Virus record (IMG/VR): IMGVR_UViG_2778261512_000020
Coordinates: 1-7,315 of that record
DNA length: 7,315 nucleotides
From: a virus
Taxonomy: Duplodnaviria > Heunggongvirae > Uroviricota > Caudoviricetes
Direction: 5' to 3' (one strand)
Shown: positions 1-7,315 of the stretch, one piece after another
How the letters are laid out: every line of letters begins with the position of its first letter
How positions within the stretch are numbered: the stretch's first letter is position 1
Notes under the pieces: model-generated
The model's database searches: none
Told to the model about the DNA's origin: nothing
The model's input: only the letters and a program-made list of their open reading frames with translations
Translations under genes and position numbers: made by a program

Positions 1-132
1 ATGATTTACGCAATCGCGGGAGGCGCTCGCATGGGTGCCTTCCAATTAAATGAATCTTTACTTGAACGAATCACCCGTAAATTACGTGACGGATGGAAAA
101 GAGTTGAGGTCTTATTATGCGCAATGAAATAG
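1..132 (+). CDS. cIII: CIII-like protease (FtsH/HflB) inhibitor, 43 aa
   Basis: Translation from the ATG at 1 is MIYAIAGGARMGAFQLNESLLERITRKLRDGWKRVEVLLCAMK, stop TAG 130-132. The core ESLLERITRKLRDGWKR matches the conserved amphipathic helix of lambda CIII as I recall it. Too short for the ORF track. The start coincides with the window edge, so the true start and RBS cannot be checked. Confidence 0.75.
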   Translation: MIYAIAGGARMGAFQLNESLLERITRKLRDGWKRVEVLLCAMK

Positions 133-269
133 CCATCAATCACCAGATGCTTCGTGCAGCACAGAACAAAGCAGTAATAGCCAGATTTATTGGTGATTCA
201 AAAATGTGGATTGAAGCAAATAAAGCGATGAAATCAGCTATCAACCTTCCGTGGTATCGCAGGAAATGA
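117..269 (+). CDS. kil: Kil-like small protein (putative host cell-division inhibitor), 50 aa
   Basis: ATG 117 lies inside the 3' end of cIII in another frame, as kil does in lambda. Translation is MRNEIAINHQMLRAAQNKAVIARFIGDSKMWIEANKAMKSAINLPWYRRK, stop TGA 267-269. The IA-FIGD-KM segment resembles what I remember of lambda Kil; the call rests mainly on synteny and size. Confidence 0.45.
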   Translation: MRNEIAINHQMLRAAQNKAVIARFIGDSKMWIEANKAMKSAINLPWYRRK

Positions 270-424
270 GTTTTACAGATAACTGGTCAGACGAAGAATT
301 CATTCGTCAGATGAAAGAATTAATCGGTAACGAAGGAGATATTCATGTCACTTGCAACCACAGTGAAGGAGAGCAAGTTACAGAGACGCATGTACACGCA
401 GAAAGCTCTCTGGTATCGCCATAA
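266..424 (+). CDS. Hypothetical small protein, 52 aa, at the position where lambda has gam and P22 has arf
   Basis: ATG 266-268 overlaps the kil stop (ATGA, TGA 267-269), with AGGA at 261-264. Translation is MSFTDNWSDEEFIRQMKELIGNEGDIHVTCNHSEGEQVTETHVHAESSLVSP, stop TAA 422-424. It is the only open frame in this interval. Confidence 0.4.
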   Translation: MSFTDNWSDEEFIRQMKELIGNEGDIHVTCNHSEGEQVTETHVHAESSLVSP

Positions 425-525
425 TGGCGACCGCGAAGGAATGCGGGTATGCCTTAATTTGTCCCGAGTCGAAGTATTAAATCAGCGTTATTTCCTTGGG
501 CCGTGTCCATTCTGAGATCAAACAT

Positions 526-1131
526 ATGAGCAAAGAATTTTATGCAAGGCTGGCAGCCATTCAGGAGAATCTGAACGCGCCAAAGAATCAGTACAACTCA
601 TTCGGTAAATATAAATACAGAAGCTGCGAAGACATTCTTGAAGGCGTTAAGCCGTTACTGAATGGTCTGTTTTTATCAATCAGCGATGAAGTTGTGTTGA
701 TTGGTGATCGGTATTACGTGAAAGCCACGGCAACTATTACCGATGGCGAAAACAGTCATACGGCAACCGCTCTTGCACGAGAGGAAGAAAGCAAGAAAGG
801 AATGGATTCTGCACAAGTTACGGGAGCTACAAGCTCTTATGCACGCAAGTATTGCCTCAATGGTTTGTTCGGCATTGATGATGCGAAAGATGCAGATACC
901 GACGAGCATAAACATCAGCAGAACGCAGCAGCAAAGCAATCAAAACCATCACCTACACCTGAACAGGTTCTAAAAGCATTCACTGACGCAGCATTGCAGA
1001 AAAACACCGTGGAAGAGCTTAAACAGGCGTTCGCCAAAGCGTGGAAGATGCTCGAAGGCACACCGGAGCAGCACAAAGCGCAGGACGTTTACAACATCAG
1101 ACGAGACGAATTAGAAGGAGCAGCTGCTTAA
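526..1131 (+). CDS. erf: Erf-family single-strand annealing protein (essential recombination function, P22 Erf-like)
   Basis: 201-aa translation begins MSKEFYARLAAIQENLNAPKNQYNSFGKYKYRSCEDILEGVKPLL, which I recognise as the Erf N-terminal annealing domain, followed by a low-complexity linker and C-terminal domain. The ORF track starts at TTG 496, but the ATG at 526 matches the family N-terminus. Stop TAA 1129-1131. Confidence 0.85.
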   Translation: MSKEFYARLAAIQENLNAPKNQYNSFGKYKYRSCEDILEGVKPLLNGLFLSISDEVVLIGDRYYVKATATITDGENSHTATALAREEESKKGMDSAQVTGATSSYARKYCLNGLFGIDDAKDADTDEHKHQQNAAAKQSKPSPTPEQVLKAFTDAALQKNTVEELKQAFAKAWKMLEGTPEQHKAQDVYNIRRDELEGAAA

Positions 1132-1514
1132 TGGCACATTCGATTACTGTAAGACTAAACAAGCCCGCAAGAGAGTTTCAGGCCGGGGAAAATATCGGAT
1201 TCAACATCCGTGCTGGCGTTCAGTATTACGATCGCCAGACAAAAAAGAAAGAATGGACAAACTACAGCGCCGTTGTATTTGCCAAGCCGGGAGCGCAAGC
1301 GGATTACTACCGTAGTGTTCTTGTTGAAGGTGGCATTGTGGAAATTACCGGAGAAAACATCAGGGTTGATGTTTATCAGGGGCAAAATGGTCAATCAATC
1401 ACTCTTGAATTACTGAATGCAAAGATTGGATTTGCAGCTTCAGGAAATGGCCCGCAGCAGCAAAGTAGTAACCAGCAGAACACTCCTGTATACGACGATT
1501 CCATCCCATTCTGA
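1131..1514 (+). CDS. Phage SSB-like single-stranded DNA-binding protein, 127 aa, with canonical acidic C-terminal tip
   Basis: ATG 1131-1133 overlaps the erf stop (TAATG), with GGAG at 1116-1119. Translation is MAHSITVRLNKPAREF...NAKIGFAASGNGPQQQSSNQQNTPVYDDSIPF. The DDSIPF ending matches the bacterial SSB tail (DDDIPF), the preceding Gln/Gly-rich linker and the N-terminal 100 aa are consistent with an OB fold. The track ORF from 1041 is an in-frame upstream extension inside erf. Confidence 0.7.
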   Translation: MAHSITVRLNKPAREFQAGENIGFNIRAGVQYYDRQTKKKEWTNYSAVVFAKPGAQADYYRSVLVEGGIVEITGENIRVDVYQGQNGQSITLELLNAKIGFAASGNGPQQQSSNQQNTPVYDDSIPF

Positions 1515-1537
1515 TTTAGAACAATAAGGATTTAATT

Positions 1538-1834
1538 ATGCCAGCGCCTCTGTATGGTGCGGATGACGCGCGCCGCTGTTCCGGCAATTCCGTATCGGAG
1601 GTGCTGGATAAATTCAGGAAAAACTACGACCTGATAATGTCGCTACCTCAGGAAACGAAAGAGGAAAAGGAATTTCGCCATTGTATATGGCTTGCAGAGA
1701 AAGAAGAACGAGAGCGAATTTACCAGACATCAATCCGACCATTCCGCAAAGCCACATATACCCACTTCCCTGAATATATCGACCCGCGCCTGCGTAATTA
1801 CCGCTCACGCTATGGCGCTATCAGTAATGACTGA
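1538..1834 (+). CDS. Hypothetical protein, 98 aa, basic/charged
   Basis: ATG 1538 is preceded by AAGGA (1526-1530) with a 7-nt spacer; stop TGA 1832-1834. Translation [63 protein letters not shown]... has no family I can recognise. Confidence 0.55.
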
Positions 1835-1844
1835 GGAATTTACA

Positions 1845-2009
1845 ATGAGAGGACTTGCATACAATCCCGGCATTCTTCCGGCAGAAATGATTATTCGCCA
1901 ACGCGTAAAGCCAATGCCATCGAGAGAGGAATTGCTTAAGAGAAATTCTTTTCCATCAGTGAATCAAAACAAATATCTGAATGCGATGTGGCGGAGTGGG
2001 AAGAAATGA
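1845..2009 (+). CDS. Hypothetical small protein, 54 aa
   Basis: ATG 1845 is preceded by GAGG (1833-1836) with an 8-nt spacer. Translation is [54 protein letters not shown]. Its stop TGA 2007-2009 overlaps the next start (ATGA). The track ORF 1692-2009 is an upstream extension overlapping the previous gene. Confidence 0.45.
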
Positions 2010-2572
2010 AACAAATGTCACTAATTGAGATGGATGGTTTTCTGAAAGGTAAATGCATCCCAAGTGATTTAAAGGTTAACGAAACAAACGCTGAATATCT
2101 GGTGCGTAAATTTGCTGAAGCGGAGGCCAAGATTTCCGCGCTGTCAGAAGACCAGCAGAGAGCGATTGAGTCAATTAAGCAGGCTGATGCGGCTGTTAAG
2201 TTGGCACACGAGAAGTTTTCAGCGCTGGCTGCGGAGAATGCGGTGATGAAAGCGTTTGGCGACAAGCTATACAGCATGTATAAAGGCCTTGAGGCCTCTG
2301 GTGGTGGATTCCATGACGAACAGTCAATTCCCTATCAGCAAGCGGCTCTCGATGCGGCAATATCGGAGTTCGAGAAAATCAAAACCCCGGCGACCGATGC
2401 GTTCCTGGCTGAATTGCTGGCGCATGGTGTGGAGTTGTTTGCTGAAAGCCAGAATGAATACGTCAGAAAAAACCGCAACGAATTGGATTCCATGACTCGC
2501 GCCGCCTATTGCGGAAGCGCTGTTGATGCTGAGAGATTCGCCGCCCAGCTTCGCAAAGGAGTGCAGTCATGA
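2006..2572 (+). CDS. Hypothetical protein, 188 aa, Ala/Glu-rich and probably helical or coiled-coil
   Basis: ATG 2006 has GGAAG 5 nt upstream and an ATGA overlap with the preceding ORF; the track start GTG 1988 is also possible. Translation [71 protein letters not shown]... Stop TGA 2570-2572. Confidence 0.6.
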
Positions 2573-2802
2573 GCAACCTACTACCATGTCCATTCTGTGG
2601 CGGCGCAGCGCACGTTGCCAGTGAAGCAGATCACCCTGAATATGGCTCTGGAGGTAGATTCTATTTCGTTCGATGCGGTACGTGTCGCGCTCAATCTGGT
2701 AGCAAATATGCAGCGCCTGGAAATGACTGCGCGATTTTTTATTCAGAGGTTAGAGCTGAGTGGAATCAGCGAGCAAAGGAGGCAACCAGTGAGCGAAATT
2801 AA
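2569..2802 (+). CDS. lar: Lar-family restriction-alleviation protein (zinc-ribbon, Rac prophage Lar/RalR-like), 77 aa
   Basis: ATG 2569 overlaps the preceding stop (ATGA), with AAGGAG at 2556-2561. Translation [44 protein letters not shown]...AEWNQRAKE has the CPFCGG ... CGTC zinc-ribbon arrangement I associate with Lar-family proteins. Stop TAA 2800-2802. Confidence 0.65.
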   Translation: MSNLLPCPFCGGAAHVASEADHPEYGSGGRFYFVRCGTCRAQSGSKYAAPGNDCAIFYSEVRAEWNQRAKEATSERN

Positions 2803-3241
2803 TTACCAGGCACTGCGTGCTAAGGCAGAAAAAGCAACGTGTGGCGAGTGGTCGCTCGAATATGGAGATGGCCGATTTGATGGTGATGATGCGCTAATTC
2901 ATCGCGAGGCTGCTGGATATATTCCCATTTGCAGAATTGAAGGCGCGCATCCAGAAAGCGGTTTCGATGAAGATTTCCAAATGGAACAGCAGGCCAATGC
3001 TGAATTCATCGCCGCAGCCAATCCAGCTACCGTGCTGGCGCTGCTGGATGAGCTGGAAGCCAAAGACAAGCGGATTGCTGACATGGAGGCGCGGGAGGTT
3101 GTACTGCCGCGTGCGCACGATGTTCACCCATTAGGGCCGCAGTCGGCGAAAATTTTTTGTGAGTTTCACCGGAGTATCGTGAACAGATGCGCCGATGAGA
3201 TTCGCAAGGTTGGCGTCAAAGTCAGCATCAAGGGGAATTAG
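2789..3241 (+). CDS. Ead/Ea22-like family protein, 150 aa
   Basis: GTG 2789 is preceded by a strong AAGGAGG (2776-2782) with a 6-nt spacer. Translation VSEINYQALRAKAEKATCGEWSLEYGDGRFDGDD...ANAEFIAAANPATVLALLDELEAKDKRIADMEAR carries the GEW and FIAAA...LLDELEAKDKRIA motifs I recognise from Ead/Ea22-like prophage proteins. The track ORF from 2597 is an extension running through the lar gene in another frame. Confidence 0.55.
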   Translation: MSEINYQALRAKAEKATCGEWSLEYGDGRFDGDDALIHREAAGYIPICRIEGAHPESGFDEDFQMEQQANAEFIAAANPATVLALLDELEAKDKRIADMEAREVVLPRAHDVHPLGPQSAKIFCEFHRSIVNRCADEIRKVGVKVSIKGN

Positions 3242-3245
3242 GGAT

Positions 3246-3647
3246 ATGGCTGAACTAACCAAAGAATGGCTGAAGCAAACTATCGCTGAATACGAAGCCA
3301 ATCGTGATGAATTACCGTTTGGACTGGATACCAACAGTGCCATTGAGCTTCAGGCGTTCAAGTTGGCGCTGGCATCGCTGGAAGCAGATCCAGTTGCTTA
3401 TATTTTCAAACATCCGGCCGGGAAATTATTCTTGGCTTTAACGGATGAAAGCAATAAAGATCAATCGGACGTTATTCCTGTTTATGCCGCCCCTCCAGTA
3501 CCAGTAGTACCTGCTGCATTACCTGAGAACGACGATGAGGACTGGCATGACATTGATTATCTTGAGCCATCTGAAGTTTACTCGCTTGGGCGAACAGCTG
3601 GCTGGAACGCCTGCCGTGCTGCCATGCTTAAGGGAGATAAATCATGA
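3246..3647 (+). CDS. Hypothetical prophage protein, 133 aa
   Basis: ATG 3246 follows the previous stop TAG 3239-3241, with AGGGG at 3231-3235. Translation MAELTKEWLKQTIAEYEANRDELPFGL...VAYIFKHPAGKLF...PVYAAPP...GWNACRAAMLKGDKS has typical coding codon usage. The track start at 3195 would overlap the previous gene. Confidence 0.6.
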   Translation: MAELTKEWLKQTIAEYEANRDELPFGLDTNSAIELQAFKLALASLEADPVAYIFKHPAGKLFLALTDESNKDQSDVIPVYAAPPVPVVPAALPENDDEDWHDIDYLEPSEVYSLGRTAGWNACRAAMLKGDKS

Positions 3648-4060
3648 TTAATCGCACCAAGCTGGAGCACATCCTCGAATATGCCAGACAGCAGAGGCGC
3701 TTTGGTCAGCATTGCAAAATTCCGCCAGGAGATATGGTTGAAATCGTGGAGATTGCCATGCGCAAGGCTGGCAACTCTCCGGTAACTCCGGATGGTTGGA
3801 TAAGCTGTAGTGATCGAATGCCTGTAATTGGTGAGCTAAATTGGAGAACTAGTTTTCCTTTGCTGATTACGTGTGAGATTGGCGTTATACCAGCTTATTA
3901 CGGCTTTGTGAGCATTAATGGGGATAGGCATTATGGCTTTATGGAGAGTCTTAAATACGGAGACGATAGCGGCGGCCATCCTCAAACTAATGAATATGAT
4001 CTGATTAGCAATGTAACCCACTGGATGCCGCTACCAGAACCGCCTCAGGAGGCAAAATGA
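3644..4060 (+). CDS. DUF551-like prophage protein, 138 aa
   Basis: ATG 3644 overlaps the preceding stop (ATGA), with AGGGAG at 3632-3637. The C-terminus ...NVTHWMPLPEPPQEAK and the internal W-x-S-x-DR-x-P segment match my recollection of DUF551 proteins found near xis/int in enterobacterial prophages. Confidence 0.55.
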   Translation: MINRTKLEHILEYARQQRRFGQHCKIPPGDMVEIVEIAMRKAGNSPVTPDGWISCSDRMPVIGELNWRTSFPLLITCEIGVIPAYYGFVSINGDRHYGFMESLKYGDDSGGHPQTNEYDLISNVTHWMPLPEPPQEAK

Positions 4061-4316
4061 TGGATGTAAAAGAGAAGGTTTTGCAGGTGATGCGTTCCCG
4101 GGCGCCCTGCAAGATAAAGCTCTCGGCGGGGAATATCCATTCAGGATGGCAACCTGGAATCTGCGGTTGGCAATGGAGAAGGAATTTCCTGATGAAGAAT
4201 GGCGTTCGGCAGATTTGCGCAAAATTCTTATGGAGCTGGCTAAAGACGGAGCAGTATCCAAAGATACCTATGCCAGCCGGATTGGTCAGACGGTATGGAG
4301 ACTGGAGGTGAGGTAA
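4057..4316 (+). CDS. Hypothetical small protein with ambiguous reading frame (possible frameshifted gene)
   Basis: A strong AGGAGG (4046-4051) and ATG 4057/4060 with an ATGA overlap indicate initiation in the track frame (4057-4311). Downstream, that frame is rich in Trp and rare Arg/Ile codons (AGG, AGA, ATA, CGG), whereas the -1 frame reads protein-like (MATWNLRLAMEKEFPDEEWRSADLRKILMELAKDGAVSKDTYASRIGQTVWRLEVR, ATG 4146 to TAA 4314-4316). Confidence 0.3.
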
Positions 4317-4423
4317 TGGCTAACCTGCAACTTGCCGTCAAATGTGAATAACAATCCTCGCATTCGCGGGGATTTCTTTTATCTGAACTCGCTACGGCGA
4401 GTTTTGTTTTATGGAGATGATAA

Positions 4424-4591
4424 ATGCACTTCCGAGTCACAGGTGAATGGAATGGAGAACCATTCAACAGAGTTATCGAAGCAGAGAACATCAATGACTG
4501 CTATGACCACTGGATGATATGGGCGCAGATAGCACATGCAGACATAACCAATATTCGAATTGAAGAACTGAAAGAACACCAAGCCGCCTGA
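4424..4591 (+). CDS. Hypothetical protein, 55 aa, directly upstream of xis (same size and spacing as the small ORF upstream of xis in lambda)
   Basis: ATG 4424 is preceded by GGAG (4413-4416) with a 7-nt spacer. Translation is MHFRVTGEWNGEPFNRVIEAENINDCYDHWMIWAQIAHADITNIRIEELKEHQAA, stop TGA 4589-4591. It is 168 nt long and 39 nt from the xis start, which is what I recall for lambda. The track missed it (under 60 aa). Confidence 0.55.
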   Translation: MHFRVTGEWNGEPFNRVIEAENINDCYDHWMIWAQIAHADITNIRIEELKEHQAA

Positions 4592-4606
4592 TGGCGGCTT
4601 TTTCTT
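4581..4606 (+). terminator. Rho-independent terminator-like hairpin
   Basis: Perfect 8-bp stem AAGCCGCC (4581-4588) / GGCGGCTT (4593-4600) with loop TGAT, followed by a T-run (4599-4603, TTTTTCTT). The stop codon of the 55-aa ORF lies in the loop. Confidence 0.6.
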
Positions 4607-4650
4607 GCGTGTAATTGCGGAGACTTTGCGATGTACTTGACACTTCAGGA
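4600..4650 (+). promoter_or_regulatory. pI (int) promoter region with cII-binding tetrad repeat TTGC-N6-TTGC
   Basis: TTGCgtgtaaTTGC at 4605-4618 is the direct-repeat architecture of cII-activated promoters (pRE, pI, paQ). It sits just upstream of and overlapping the xis start (4631), as in lambda, where the pI transcript starts inside xis so Int is made without Xis. Confidence 0.65.
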
Positions 4651-4849
4651 GTGGAACGCACGCCAGCGACGCCCAAGAAGCCTTGAAACAGTTCGTCGAT
4701 GGGTGCGCGAATGCAGGATATTCCCTCCTCCGGTTAAGGATGGAAGAGAGTATCTGTTCCACGAATCAGCGGTAAAGGTTGACTTAAATCGACCAGTAAC
4801 AGGTAGCCTTTTGAAGAGGATCAGAAATGGGAAGAAGGCGAAGTCATGA
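4631..4849 (+). CDS. xis: Excisionase Xis, 72 aa
   Basis: Translation MYLTLQEWNARQRRPRSLETVRRWVRECRIFPPPVKDGREYLFHESAVKVDLNRPVTGSLLKRIRNGKKAKS matches lambda Xis as I recall it. The 3' end overlaps the int start by 23 nt, as in lambda. Confidence 0.95.
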   Translation: MYLTLQEWNARQRRPRSLETVRRWVRECRIFPPPVKDGREYLFHESAVKVDLNRPVTGSLLKRIRNGKKAKS

Positions 4850-5897
4850 GCGCCGGGATTTACCCCCTAACCTTTATATAAGAAACAATGGATATTACTG
4901 CTACAGGGACCCAAGGACGGGTAAAGAGTTTGGTTTAGGCCGAGACAGGAGGATAGCAATCACTGAAGCAATACAGGCCAATATTGAGTTATTTTCAGGA
5001 CACAAACACAAGCCTCTGACAGCGAGAATCAACAGTGATAATTCTGTTACGTTACATTCATGGCTTGATCGCTACGAAAAAATCCTCGCCAGCAGAGGAA
5101 TCAAGCAGAAGACACTCATAAATTACATGAGCAAAATTAAAGCAATAAGGAGGGGGCTGCCTGATGCTCCACTTGAAGACATCACCACAAAAGAAATTGC
5201 GGCAATGCTCAATGGATACATAGACGAGGGCAAGGCGGCGTCAGCCAAGTTAATCAGATCAACACTGAGCGATGCATTCCGAGAGGCAATAGCTGAAGGC
5301 CATATAACAACAAACCCGGTCGCTGCCACTCGCGCAGCAAAATCAGAGGTAAGGAGATCAAGACTTACGGCTGACGAATACCTGAAAATTTATCAAGCAG
5401 CAGAATCATCACCATGTTGGCTCAGACTTGCAATGGAACTGGCTGTTGTTACCGGGCAGCGAGTTGGTGATTTATGCGAAATGAAGTGGTCTGATATCGT
5501 AGATGGATATCTTTATGTCGAACAAAGCAAAACAGGCGTAAAAATTGCCATCCCTACAACATTGCATGTTGATGCTCTCGGGATATCAATGAAGGAAACA
5601 CTTGATAAATGCAAAGAGATTCTTGGCGGAGAAACCATAATTGCATCTACTCGTCGTGAACCGCTTTCATCCGGCACAGTATCAAGGTATTTTATGCGCG
5701 CACGAAAAGCATCAGGTCTTTCCTTCGAAGGGGATCCGCCTACCTTTCACGAGTTGCGCAGTTTGTCTGCAAGACTCTATGAGAAGCAGATAAGCGATAA
5801 GTTTGCTCAACATCTTCTCGGACATAAGTCGGACACCATGGCATCACAGTATCGTGATGACAGAGGCAGGGAGTGGGACAAAATTGAAATCAAATAA
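4827..5897 (+). CDS. int: Tyrosine site-specific integrase Int (lambda-type), 356 aa
   Basis: Translation begins MGRRRSHERRDLPPNLYIRNNGYYCYRDPRTGKEFGLGRDRRIAITEA and ends SQYRDDRGREWDKIEIK, with the catalytic R...HxxR...Y residues (HELRSL, HLLGHKSD, ASQYRDD). It matches lambda Int as I recall it. Stop TAA 5895-5897. Confidence 0.97.
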   Translation: MGRRRSHERRDLPPNLYIRNNGYYCYRDPRTGKEFGLGRDRRIAITEAIQANIELFSGHKHKPLTARINSDNSVTLHSWLDRYEKILASRGIKQKTLINYMSKIKAIRRGLPDAPLEDITTKEIAAMLNGYIDEGKAASAKLIRSTLSDAFREAIAEGHITTNPVAATRAAKSEVRRSRLTADEYLKIYQAAESSPCWLRLAMELAVVTGQRVGDLCEMKWSDIVDGYLYVEQSKTGVKIAIPTTLHVDALGISMKETLDKCKEILGGETIIASTRREPLSSGTVSRYFMRARKASGLSFEGDPPTFHELRSLSARLYEKQISDKFAQHLLGHKSDTMASQYRDDRGREWDKIEIK

Positions 5898-5925
5898 TGA
5901 TTTTATTTTGACTGATAGTGACCTG
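5893..5925. promoter_or_regulatory. Int arm-type binding sites P'3-P'2-P'1 in the P' arm
   Basis: AATAATGATTTTATTTTGACTGATAGTGACCTG is the reverse complement of the lambda P' arm segment CAGGTCACTATCAGTCAAAATAAAATCATTATT. P'3 overlaps the int stop codon. Confidence 0.75.
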
Positions 5926-5932
5926 TTCGTTG

Positions 5933-5945
5933 CAACAAATTGATA
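5933..5945. promoter_or_regulatory. IHF binding site H' in the P' arm
   Basis: CAACAAATTGATA is the reverse complement of TATCAATTTGTTG, which fits the IHF consensus WATCAANNNNTTR. It lies between the arm-type sites and the core, as in lambda attP. Confidence 0.65.
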
Positions 5946-6031
5946 AGCAATGTTTTTTTATAATGCCAACTTAGTATAAAAAAGCAGGCTTCAACGGATT
6001 CATTTTTCTATTTCATAGCCCGGAGCAACCT

Positions 6032-7315
6032 GTGAACACATTTTCAGTTTCCCGTCTGGCGCTGGCATTGGCTTTTGGCGTGACGCTGACCGCCTGTAGC
6101 TCAACACCACCCGATCAACGTCCTTCTGATCAAACCGCGCCTGGTACCTCTTCTCGCCCGATTCTGTCGGCAAAAGAAGCGCAGAATTTCGATGCTCAAC
6201 ACTATTTTGCATCCCTGACACCAGGTGCTGCAGCGTGGAATCCTTCCCCGATTACCCTGCCTGCGCAACCTGACTTTGTTGTCGGCCCGGCGGGTACTCA
6301 AGGTGTAACGCATACCACGATTCAGGCGGCGGTAGATGCGGCAATTATCAAGCGCACTAACAAGCGCCAGTATATTGCCGTGATGCCTGGTGAGTATCAG
6401 GGAACGGTGTATGTCCCTGCTGCTCCGGGTGGAATTACTCTGTACGGTACAGGTGAAAAACCGATTGATGTGAAGATTGGGCTTTCCCTTGATGGGGGCA
6501 TGAGCCCTGCCGACTGGCGTCACGACGTCAACCCGCGCGGCAAATATATGCCAGGTAAACCAGCGTGGTATATGTACGATAGCTGCCAGAGCAAACGCAG
6601 CGACAGTATCGGTGTTCTCTGCTCTGCGGTCTTCTGGTCACAAAACAATGGCCTGCAACTGCAAAATCTGACCATCGAAAACACGCTGGGCGATAGCGTA
6701 GATGCAGGTAACCATCCGGCGGTGGCACTGCGTACTGATGGTGACCAGGTACAGATTAACAACGTTAACATTCTCGGTCGTCAGAACACCTTCTTTGTCA
6801 CCAACAGCGGTGTGCAGAACCGTCTGGAAACCAACCGTCAGCCGCGTACGCTGGTGACCAACAGCTACATTGAAGGGGATGTGGATATCGTTTCTGGTCG
6901 CGGCGCAGTGGTGTTCGATAACACCGAATTCCGCGTGGTGAACTCACGTACTCAGCAAGAAGCGTATGTGTTTGCACCGGCTACGCTGTCCAACATTTAC
7001 TACGGTTTCCTCGCCGTAAACAGCCGTTTCAATGCTTTCGGTGATGGTGTGGCGCAACTGGGCCGCTCGCTGGATGTTGATGCCAATACCAACGGTCAGG
7101 TGGTGATCCGTGATAGCGCCATCAACGAAGGTTTTAACACGGCTAAACCGTGGGCCGATGCGGTGATCTCTAATCGTCCGTTTGCGGGTAATACCGGCAG
7201 CGTAGATGATAACGACGAAATACAGCGCAATCTGAATGACACTAACTACAACCGCATGTGGGAATACAATAACCGCGGCGTGGGTAGTAAAGTGGTTGCA
7301 GAGGCGAAGAAGTAA
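6032..7315 (+). CDS. ybhC: Host outer-membrane lipoprotein YbhC (pectinesterase-fold acyl-CoA thioesterase family), 427 aa
   Basis: GTG 6032 is preceded by GGAG (6022-6025). The N-terminus MNTFSVSRLALALAFGVTLTAC has a lipoprotein signal peptide with lipobox LTAC, and the body has pectinesterase/beta-helix-like repeats. ybhC flanks attB-lambda in E. coli K-12. Stop TAA 7313-7315. Confidence 0.9.
   Translation: MNTFSVSRLALALAFGVTLTACSSTPPDQRPSDQTAPGTSSRPILSAKEAQNFDAQHYFASLTPGAAAWNPSPITLPAQPDFVVGPAGTQGVTHTTIQAAVDAAIIKRTNKRQYIAVMPGEYQGTVYVPAAPGGITLYGTGEKPIDVKIGLSLDGGMSPADWRHDVNPRGKYMPGKPAWYMYDSCQSKRSDSIGVLCSAVFWSQNNGLQLQNLTIENTLGDSVDAGNHPAVALRTDGDQVQINNVNILGRQNTFFVTNSGVQNRLETNRQPRTLVTNSYIEGDVDIVSGRGAVVFDNTEFRVVNSRTQQEAYVFAPATLSNIYYGFLAVNSRFNAFGDGVAQLGRSLDVDANTNGQVVIRDSAINEGFNTAKPWADAVISNRPFAGNTGSVDDNDEIQRNLNDTNYNRMWEYNNRGVGSKVVAEAKK

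Follow-up and report, generated by a model that had tools for sequence, protein, structure and literature searches.

Lambdoid phages carry recombination (Rec) modules that are often-shuffled combinations of genes for single-strand annealing proteins (SAPs), single-stranded DNA-binding proteins (SSBs), nucleases and anti-RecBCD proteins, and a 2025 survey of 325 of these phages classed the gp40 protein of HK97 as 'SSB-1b' on the basis of its predicted structure (PMC12315714). The window analyzed here is a stretch of 7,315 nucleotides (nt) from IMG/VR record IMGVR_UViG_2778261512_000020. Its positions 1–5985, the feature under study, are almost certainly the integrase-proximal end (PL operon plus attL) of a lambdoid prophage, inserted between ybhC and ybhB, at the attachment site of lambda, and put together as a patchwork of known modules; the other end of the prophage lies beyond the window. 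In the classification of the survey, the window reads SAP (Erf) + SSB-1b + Abc2, without a nuclease, as HK97 does, and no difference was detected at the module level (PMC12315714).

Among the described phages, HK97 and HK106 (Hendrixvirinae) have kil, two small open reading frames (ORFs), erf, gp40, abc2 and the DUF2737 gene in the same order and in the same alleles as the window. Their annotations give the order cIII-kil-erf-gp40-abc2 ... xis-int-att, with an att core 'identical to lambda', which is also the situation in the window. The xis-int-attP side of HK97 matches positions 4583–5985 at 98.6%, and the att-proximal side of HK106 matches positions 4370–5985 at 97.9%. However, both phages differ from the window in the first 114 nt (cIII) and across positions 2118–4370, save for short islands and the Lar gene of HK106 (2545–2855, 93%), and HK97 is without the orf55 found in the window. 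In P22 (c3-kil-arf-erf-abc1-abc2), erf and abc2 show the same order and operon position as in the window, but the window has unrelated small ORFs at the place of P22 arf and an SSB gene at that of abc1, and int, xis and att of P22 are unrelated to those of the window. None of the gam-bet-exo, ea8.5, orf60a/61/63 or ea22 DNA of lambda is in the window. The Lar protein (RalR) of the Rac prophage of Escherichia coli K-12 has in common with a window protein the Pfam Lar_restr_allev match and an N-terminal CPFCG...C..C, a zinc-ribbon-like signature; the Rac neighborhood, however, has recET and no DNA similarity to the window.

A lambdoid prophage end in the classical lambda site

Positions 1 to 5897 form a single long run of genes on one strand (the + strand, which PL transcription follows); after it come an intergenic junction and a host gene (Table 1). 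The family assignments in Table 1, made by sequence comparison, represent strong homology, beyond what chance matches would give. All elements listed by the original prediction, which had been made from the letters alone, were recognized at about the expected places by Pfam, PHROG, BLASTP and nt comparison.

Table 1. Genes and sites recognized in the window
Feature	Coordinates	Strand	Evidence
cIII (43 aa), FtsH-inhibitor lysogeny factor, chimeric allele	1..132	+	Pfam Lambda_CIII, 56 bits
kil (50 aa), HK97-type host division inhibitor	117..269	+	Pfam Lambda_Kil, 69 bits
Small ORF (52 aa), HK97 gp42 / Sf6 gene 30 family, unknown function	266..424	+	phrog_2123, E 9e-42
Small overlapping ORF (56 aa), HK97 gp41 / Sf6 gene 29 family	345..515	+	phrog_1723, E 9e-36
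erf (201 aa), Erf-family single-strand annealing protein	526..1131	+	Pfam ERF, 151.6 bits (cut-off 25)
Divergent SSB (127 aa; HK97 gp40 type, SSB-1b)	1131..1514	+	phrog_44 'single strand DNA binding protein', E 2.9e-27
abc2 (98 aa), anti-RecBCD protein	1538..1834	+	Pfam Anti-RecBCD_p2, 206.9 bits over 1-98
DUF2737 gene (54 aa), right edge of swappable recombination module	1845..2009	+	Pfam DUF2737, 107.7 bits
EaE-like ORF (up to 194 aa), ends conserved, middle rare	1988..2572	+	phrog_614, E 3e-53
Lar-family restriction-alleviation-like gene (77 aa), putative	2569..2802	+	Pfam Lar_restr_allev (PF14354), 38.5 bits (curated cut-off 28.6)
Ead/Ea22-like gene (150 aa, GTG start inferred)	2789..3241	+	Pfam Ead_Ea22, 80.1 bits
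ORF of unknown function (133 aa)	3246..3647	+	phrog_5117, E 1.7e-23; no Pfam hit
DUF551 gene (138 aa)	3644..4060	+	Pfam DUF551, 47.9 bits
eaa homologue, frameshifted	4057..4316	+	phrog_2814
55-aa ORF (lambda orf55 / lambdap35)	4424..4591	+	54/55 identical to lambda
xis, excisionase	4631..4849	+	71/72 identical to lambda Xis; Pfam Exc, 139 bits
int, lambda-type tyrosine integrase	4827..5897	+	353/356 identical to lambda Int; Pfam Phage_integrase and Arm-DNA-bind_1
attL (B-O-P'): P' arm 5898-5970 and 15-bp core TTAGTATAAAAAAGC 5971-5985	5898..5985	.	Comparison with lambda and K-12
ybhC, host gene outside the prophage, gal-side flank of attλ	6032..7315	+	99.2% nt identity to K-12 ybhC

The integrase side is of the lambda type, as had been proposed. 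Positions 4348–5985 (orf55, xis, int, P' arm and core) are 97.8% identical to lambda, the homology beginning 13 nt downstream of the stop codon of lambda ea8.5, and Int is a lambda-like tyrosine integrase with an arm-binding N-terminal domain. On its phage side the core, GCTTTTTTATACTAA, borders the P' arm, and on its host side it borders the B arm, which adjoins ybhC. It is identical to that of lambda, and lambda identity ends immediately after it, at 5985; positions 5967–7315, in turn, align at 99.2% identity with the unoccupied attB/ybhC region of E. coli K-12. Position 5985 is therefore the exact phage/host junction, precisely where the original prediction had ended the prophage, and because the P' arm lies to the left of the core and attB/ybhC to its right, the site is the attL of a prophage that occupies the classical lambda site. 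A single base of the P' arm differs from lambda (5952, C to T on the window strand); this change presumably lengthens the A-tract next to the IHF H' site. The ybhC gene is annotated in all top E. coli hits.

The window was searched against 50,697 phage records and, entire or as probes, against 5,426 complete E. coli genomes. A 401-nt probe of the int-attL-ybhC junction was present, at 80% coverage or more, in 1,913 of these genomes. For the window as a whole, the best phage coverage was at most 54%, and a coverage of 80% was reached in only two E. coli genomes (ETEC4091 and CUVET21-PYO5), in five and nine pieces. A single collinear relative was thus sought and rejected. A mosaic lambdoid prophage had been predicted, with uniform collinearity to one known phage named as the observation that would speak against it; since no such phage was found, the mosaic claim stands. 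The pieces of the window are each common in E. coli, except the middle of the EaE-like ORF.

An identity map was drawn against lambda, HK97, HK106, P22, HF4s, ST104 and four E. coli prophages (88-3493, ETEC4091, GB089 and TST3). According to this map, the patchwork has four parts: a chimeric cIII; an HK97/HK106-type block of kil, the two small ORFs, erf, SSB-1b, abc2 and the DUF2737 gene; a heavily shuffled 'ea' set comprising the EaE-like, Lar-family and Ea22-like genes, the ORF of unknown function, the DUF551 gene and a frameshifted eaa; and a lambda/HK97-type cassette of orf55, xis, int, P' arm and core. The mosaic junctions lie at or near gene boundaries, and the variable cassettes are flanked by short conserved islands. 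Such a structure would have originated from gene-sized cassettes exchanged among co-resident lambdoid phages and prophages.

Lambda matches are confined to three places: positions 52–99 (100%) and 4348–5985 are strong, and a 64-nt match at 2788–2851 in the Ea22-like gene (76.6%) is weak. The cIII end had been regarded as lambda-type, but this is true of 48 nt (52–99, encoding the central helix) only; no nt alignment to lambda was obtained for cIII outside these positions, and the C terminus and kil are HK97 alleles. In the protein, the central amphipathic helix motif ESLLERITRKLRDGWKR is identical to that of lambda CIII. Outside the helix the two proteins differ: lambda CIII has 54 amino acids (aa) and the window CIII is 11 aa shorter, 24 of the 35 aa aligned by BLASTP are identical, and the identity in a multiple alignment is 61%. 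By length, identity and the limited nt match, the gene as a whole is not a lambda allele. Compared with P22 c3, positions 1–99 show 77.8% nt identity. The window CIII is identical to the WP_000638547-type CIII of E. coli GB089, the first 114 nt are 99% identical to HF4s and the GB089 prophage, unlike HK97, and the C-terminal LCAMK is common to HK97 CIII. The lambda-identical 48 nt and the HK97-like 3' end thus place a mosaic junction within the 132 nt of cIII. Homology to HK97 and HK106 begins at 115, where the 3' end of cIII overlaps the HK97-type kil, the product of which is 98% identical to HK97 Kil and 47% identical to lambda Kil.

The block that follows, positions 115–2118 (kil through the DUF2737 gene), is 96.5% identical to HK97 and 97.1% identical to HK106. 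Since both of these phages already have the block together with an int and att of the lambda type, the lambda/erf junctions were inherited and are not specific to the prophage. The junctions specific to this prophage are the one at 114/115 and those within 2118–4370.

In short, the element is a new combination of known lambdoid modules at the most classical of attachment sites, and its kind is already known. It represents a clean, correctly bounded example of textbook lambdoid mosaicism at attλ, the value of which is mainly in annotation, and its pairing of erf with a lambda int is a pattern of the HK97 lineage rather than a new hybrid. The practical yield is a base-resolved map with attL at 5971–5985, a swap unit of the Rec module at about 320–1832 and a shuffled ea region at 2118–4370.

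Alternative origins and function

According to the original prediction, the interior had a P22-type erf module and a Lar-like gene as in Rac, between lambda-type ends. In this version the element would be a recent three-way hybrid, with its ends from lambda, its erf module from P22 and its lar from Rac, and with lambda/P22 junctions of its own. The alignments with lambda, P22 and Rac that had been suggested as a check did map the breakpoints, but the donors had been misnamed. Erf and Abc2 are indeed related to the P22 proteins (75% and 93% aa identity, respectively), the int end is as close to lambda as a hybrid would require, and the Lar-family match exceeds the curated Pfam cut-off. At the nt level, however, similarity to P22 is found in parts only: in erf it is restricted to positions 526–986, the N-terminal domain (79.5%), and from abc2 to the DUF2737 gene it is 84.6%, whereas erf alone is 96–100% identical to HK97 and HK106. 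The P22 genes abc1 and arf have no counterpart in the window: BLASTP gave no alignment between the SSB-like protein and Abc1, nor between the ORF at 345–515, which is at the position of arf, and P22 Arf. As for Rac, the Lar-like assignment holds at the family level, but the protein has 26% identity over 42 aa to RalR/Lar (E 8e-5 in a single comparison), which is not a close relationship, and a blastn comparison of the window with 13 kb of the K-12 Rac prophage (intR to ydaV) gave no match at E ≤ 1e-6, so that Rac is rejected as the source of the DNA. Together with the 48-nt limit of the cIII match and the arrangement already seen in HK97 and HK106, the identity map refutes the three-way hybrid in its specifics, and we consider such an origin very improbable.

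It might also be supposed that the element is a decaying, defective remnant, and that the mosaic arose partly from deletions and pseudogenization after integration. The eaa homologue is frameshifted, and related attλ prophages show pseudogenes or insertion sequences (ISs) in this region (four partial coding sequences in GB089; IS600/IS3 in others). On the other hand, the other 17 ORFs in positions 1–5985, including int, xis, erf, SSB and abc2, are intact and full-length compared with their homologues, attL is intact save for one base, and one frameshift in an accessory gene is compatible with a viable phage. Decay of this kind is therefore unlikely, though considerably less so than the three-way hybrid, and the patchwork prophage of exchanged known modules is by far the preferred interpretation.

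Nothing found contradicts this interpretation, but some points count against it. The split eaa could be a pseudogene, and so a possible sign of decay, or a sequencing error; the similarity of the SSB-like fold to solved SSBs is consistent but modest (template modeling scores of 0.4–0.55); the activity of Erf, SSB and Abc2 in this prophage is assumed by analogy with homologues; and a window of 7.3 kb is too small to judge completeness or inducibility.

If the prophage is induced, transcription from PL would yield CIII and Kil, which in characterized homologues inhibit FtsH and block division, respectively. The recombination module would come next: Erf would anneal single strands with its cognate SSB as a helper, and Abc2 would modify RecBCD, unlike Gam, which blocks it. 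The accessory ea genes would be expressed after this module, and Xis and Int would finally excise the prophage by recombination between attL and attR, as their homologues do.

The recombination module

Erf and an SSB-like protein in place of lambda gam-bet-exo had been predicted, and an Erf/SSB/Abc2 module is indeed present there. The erf-SSB-abc2 block occurs in 556 of the 5,426 E. coli genomes. Erf belongs to the Erf family by sequence. Its C-terminal region of about 45 aa (987–1131) diverges from P22 Erf and its N-terminal annealing domain is conserved. This divergence coincides with the presence of SSB as the downstream neighbor where P22 has abc1, and the change at the C terminus may represent a swap of a partner-interaction domain. 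Abc2 matches its family over the full length.

The SSB-like protein consists of an oligonucleotide-binding (OB) fold core, a Q-rich linker and an acidic tip, DDSIPF (1494–1514), and ends in ...QQQSSNQQNTPVYDDSIPF. Across 26 aligned homologues, the core (about 100 aa) is conserved and the Q/P-rich linker differs in length; most have a D-D-x-I-P-F tip. Both a disordered, low-complexity linker and the acidic tip are thus recognized. The tip aligns with the end of E. coli SSB, DDDIPF. The AlphaFold2 model has a mean confidence (pLDDT) of 83.7, exceeding 90 over residues 1–80, and when this model was compared with the PDB by Foldseek, all of the top 50 hits were SSBs (bacterial or mitochondrial) or PriB (E 4e-5 to 9e-4). 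No Pfam family, including the SSB model PF00436, was matched at E ≤ 0.01, and phmmer found no solved SSB among the PDB sequences. The protein is thus a divergent branch of the SSBs, as supported by PHROG, the C-terminal tip and the predicted fold, and binding of single-stranded DNA is predicted. At the level of the modeled fold, this independently confirms the protein of the HK97 gp40 type as a divergent SSB, the acidic tip of which is canonical. The window protein and HK97 gp40 are 94% identical. The record of HK97 gp40 (3787–4176 of the HK97 sequence compared) ends in DDSNPI and is 2 aa longer than the DDSIPF protein of the window; given this end, the tip in the HK97 reference may be a variant or a damaged one.

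Exchange of modules and short islands

Module exchange in the recombination slot had also been proposed, and it is borne out by prophages that share the int-attL of the window and carry other recombinases there, namely RecT in 88-3493 and Red in lambda. The 88-3493 prophage shares with the window the orf55-xis-int-attL-ybhC end as well as the Lar, Ea22, DUF551 and eaa genes, with RecT and a Gp157-family gene (1401–3095 of the sequence compared) in place of erf-SSB-abc2. The TST3 prophage shares the DUF2737, EaE-like and Lar genes with the window and has a RecT module (2048–5089 of the sequence compared) and a different integrase; its Gp157-family gene is interrupted by an IS4-like element. To the left of the module, the homology of both prophages is confined to an island of about 50 nt (266–319, 98%), and it resumes at 1845 in 88-3493 and at 1833 in TST3. 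From these limits, the swapped unit spans about 320–1832 and is bounded by gene ends.

Six islands of 35–60 nt, conserved at 91–100% amid unrelated neighbors, were found in the window (52–99, 266–319, 2534–2577, 3765–3822, 4013–4064 and 4317–4350). All but the first, conserved at 91–98%, lie at the ends of genes or close to them and represent candidate linkers for cassette exchange. That the islands act as homology linkers, where recombinases of the Erf, RecT or Red type swap cassettes, is a tentative suggestion that we hold as rather less than probable. If it is true, the islands would locate to the base the exchange points of the recombination module (about 320–1832) and of each ea gene, and this at a site that is occupied in one of three E. 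coli genomes. That cassette exchange is directed by short conserved stretches is an old idea, which the islands fit; it is found in the modular theory and in relaxed homologous recombination (PMC2327257), and the novelty here would be confined to the specific catalogue of junctions.

Accessory genes and other features

Positions 2118–4370 are a patchwork, the pieces of which are 89–99% identical to HF4s, ST104, HK106 and the prophages of 88-3493, ETEC4091, GB089 and TST3. Identity breaks near 2118–2131, 2253, 2545, 2800–2855, 3365–3397, 3633, 3765, 3822, 4013 and 4316, and no single record in the searches holds positions 2100–4400 at 80% or more. The first three of these breaks are junctions internal to the EaE-like ORF, where HK97/HK106 homology stops at 2118; the last 39 nt of this ORF match the end of P22 eaE at 97.5%. 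Its middle (2240–2560) was the only rare one among the segments probed for frequency: eight of the 5,426 E. coli genomes match it, two of them in full (TST3 and TBE6, 99.7%).

The Lar-family gene, which also matches phrog_599 (E 1.4e-12), is 93–97% identical in nt to HK106, HF4s and 88-3493, and the Ea22-like region (2788–3397) is 95.6% identical to 88-3493. Two islands within the DUF551 gene region (3765–3822 and 4013–4064) are common to many otherwise different phages. In the eaa homologue, positions 1–25 of phrog_2814 match the 4057 frame and positions 31–86 match the 4146 frame; compared with eaa of E. coli 88-3493, which is intact and encodes 86 aa, one nt has been deleted after 4103.

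A scan of the entire window with Rfam at gathering thresholds gave no structured RNA. No Chi site is present on either strand of the window, which is compatible with a phage encoding Abc2, but 7 kb is too short for this to carry weight. The match of phrog_2123 begins at residue 6 of the 251–424 ORF. The gp42- and gp41-family ORFs (266–424 and 345–515) bear the label 'recombinase' in PHROGs and RefSeq, for which no basis is evident. The guanine-plus-cytosine content of positions 2119–2544 is 52.6%, compared with 44.5% in the flanking phage DNA.

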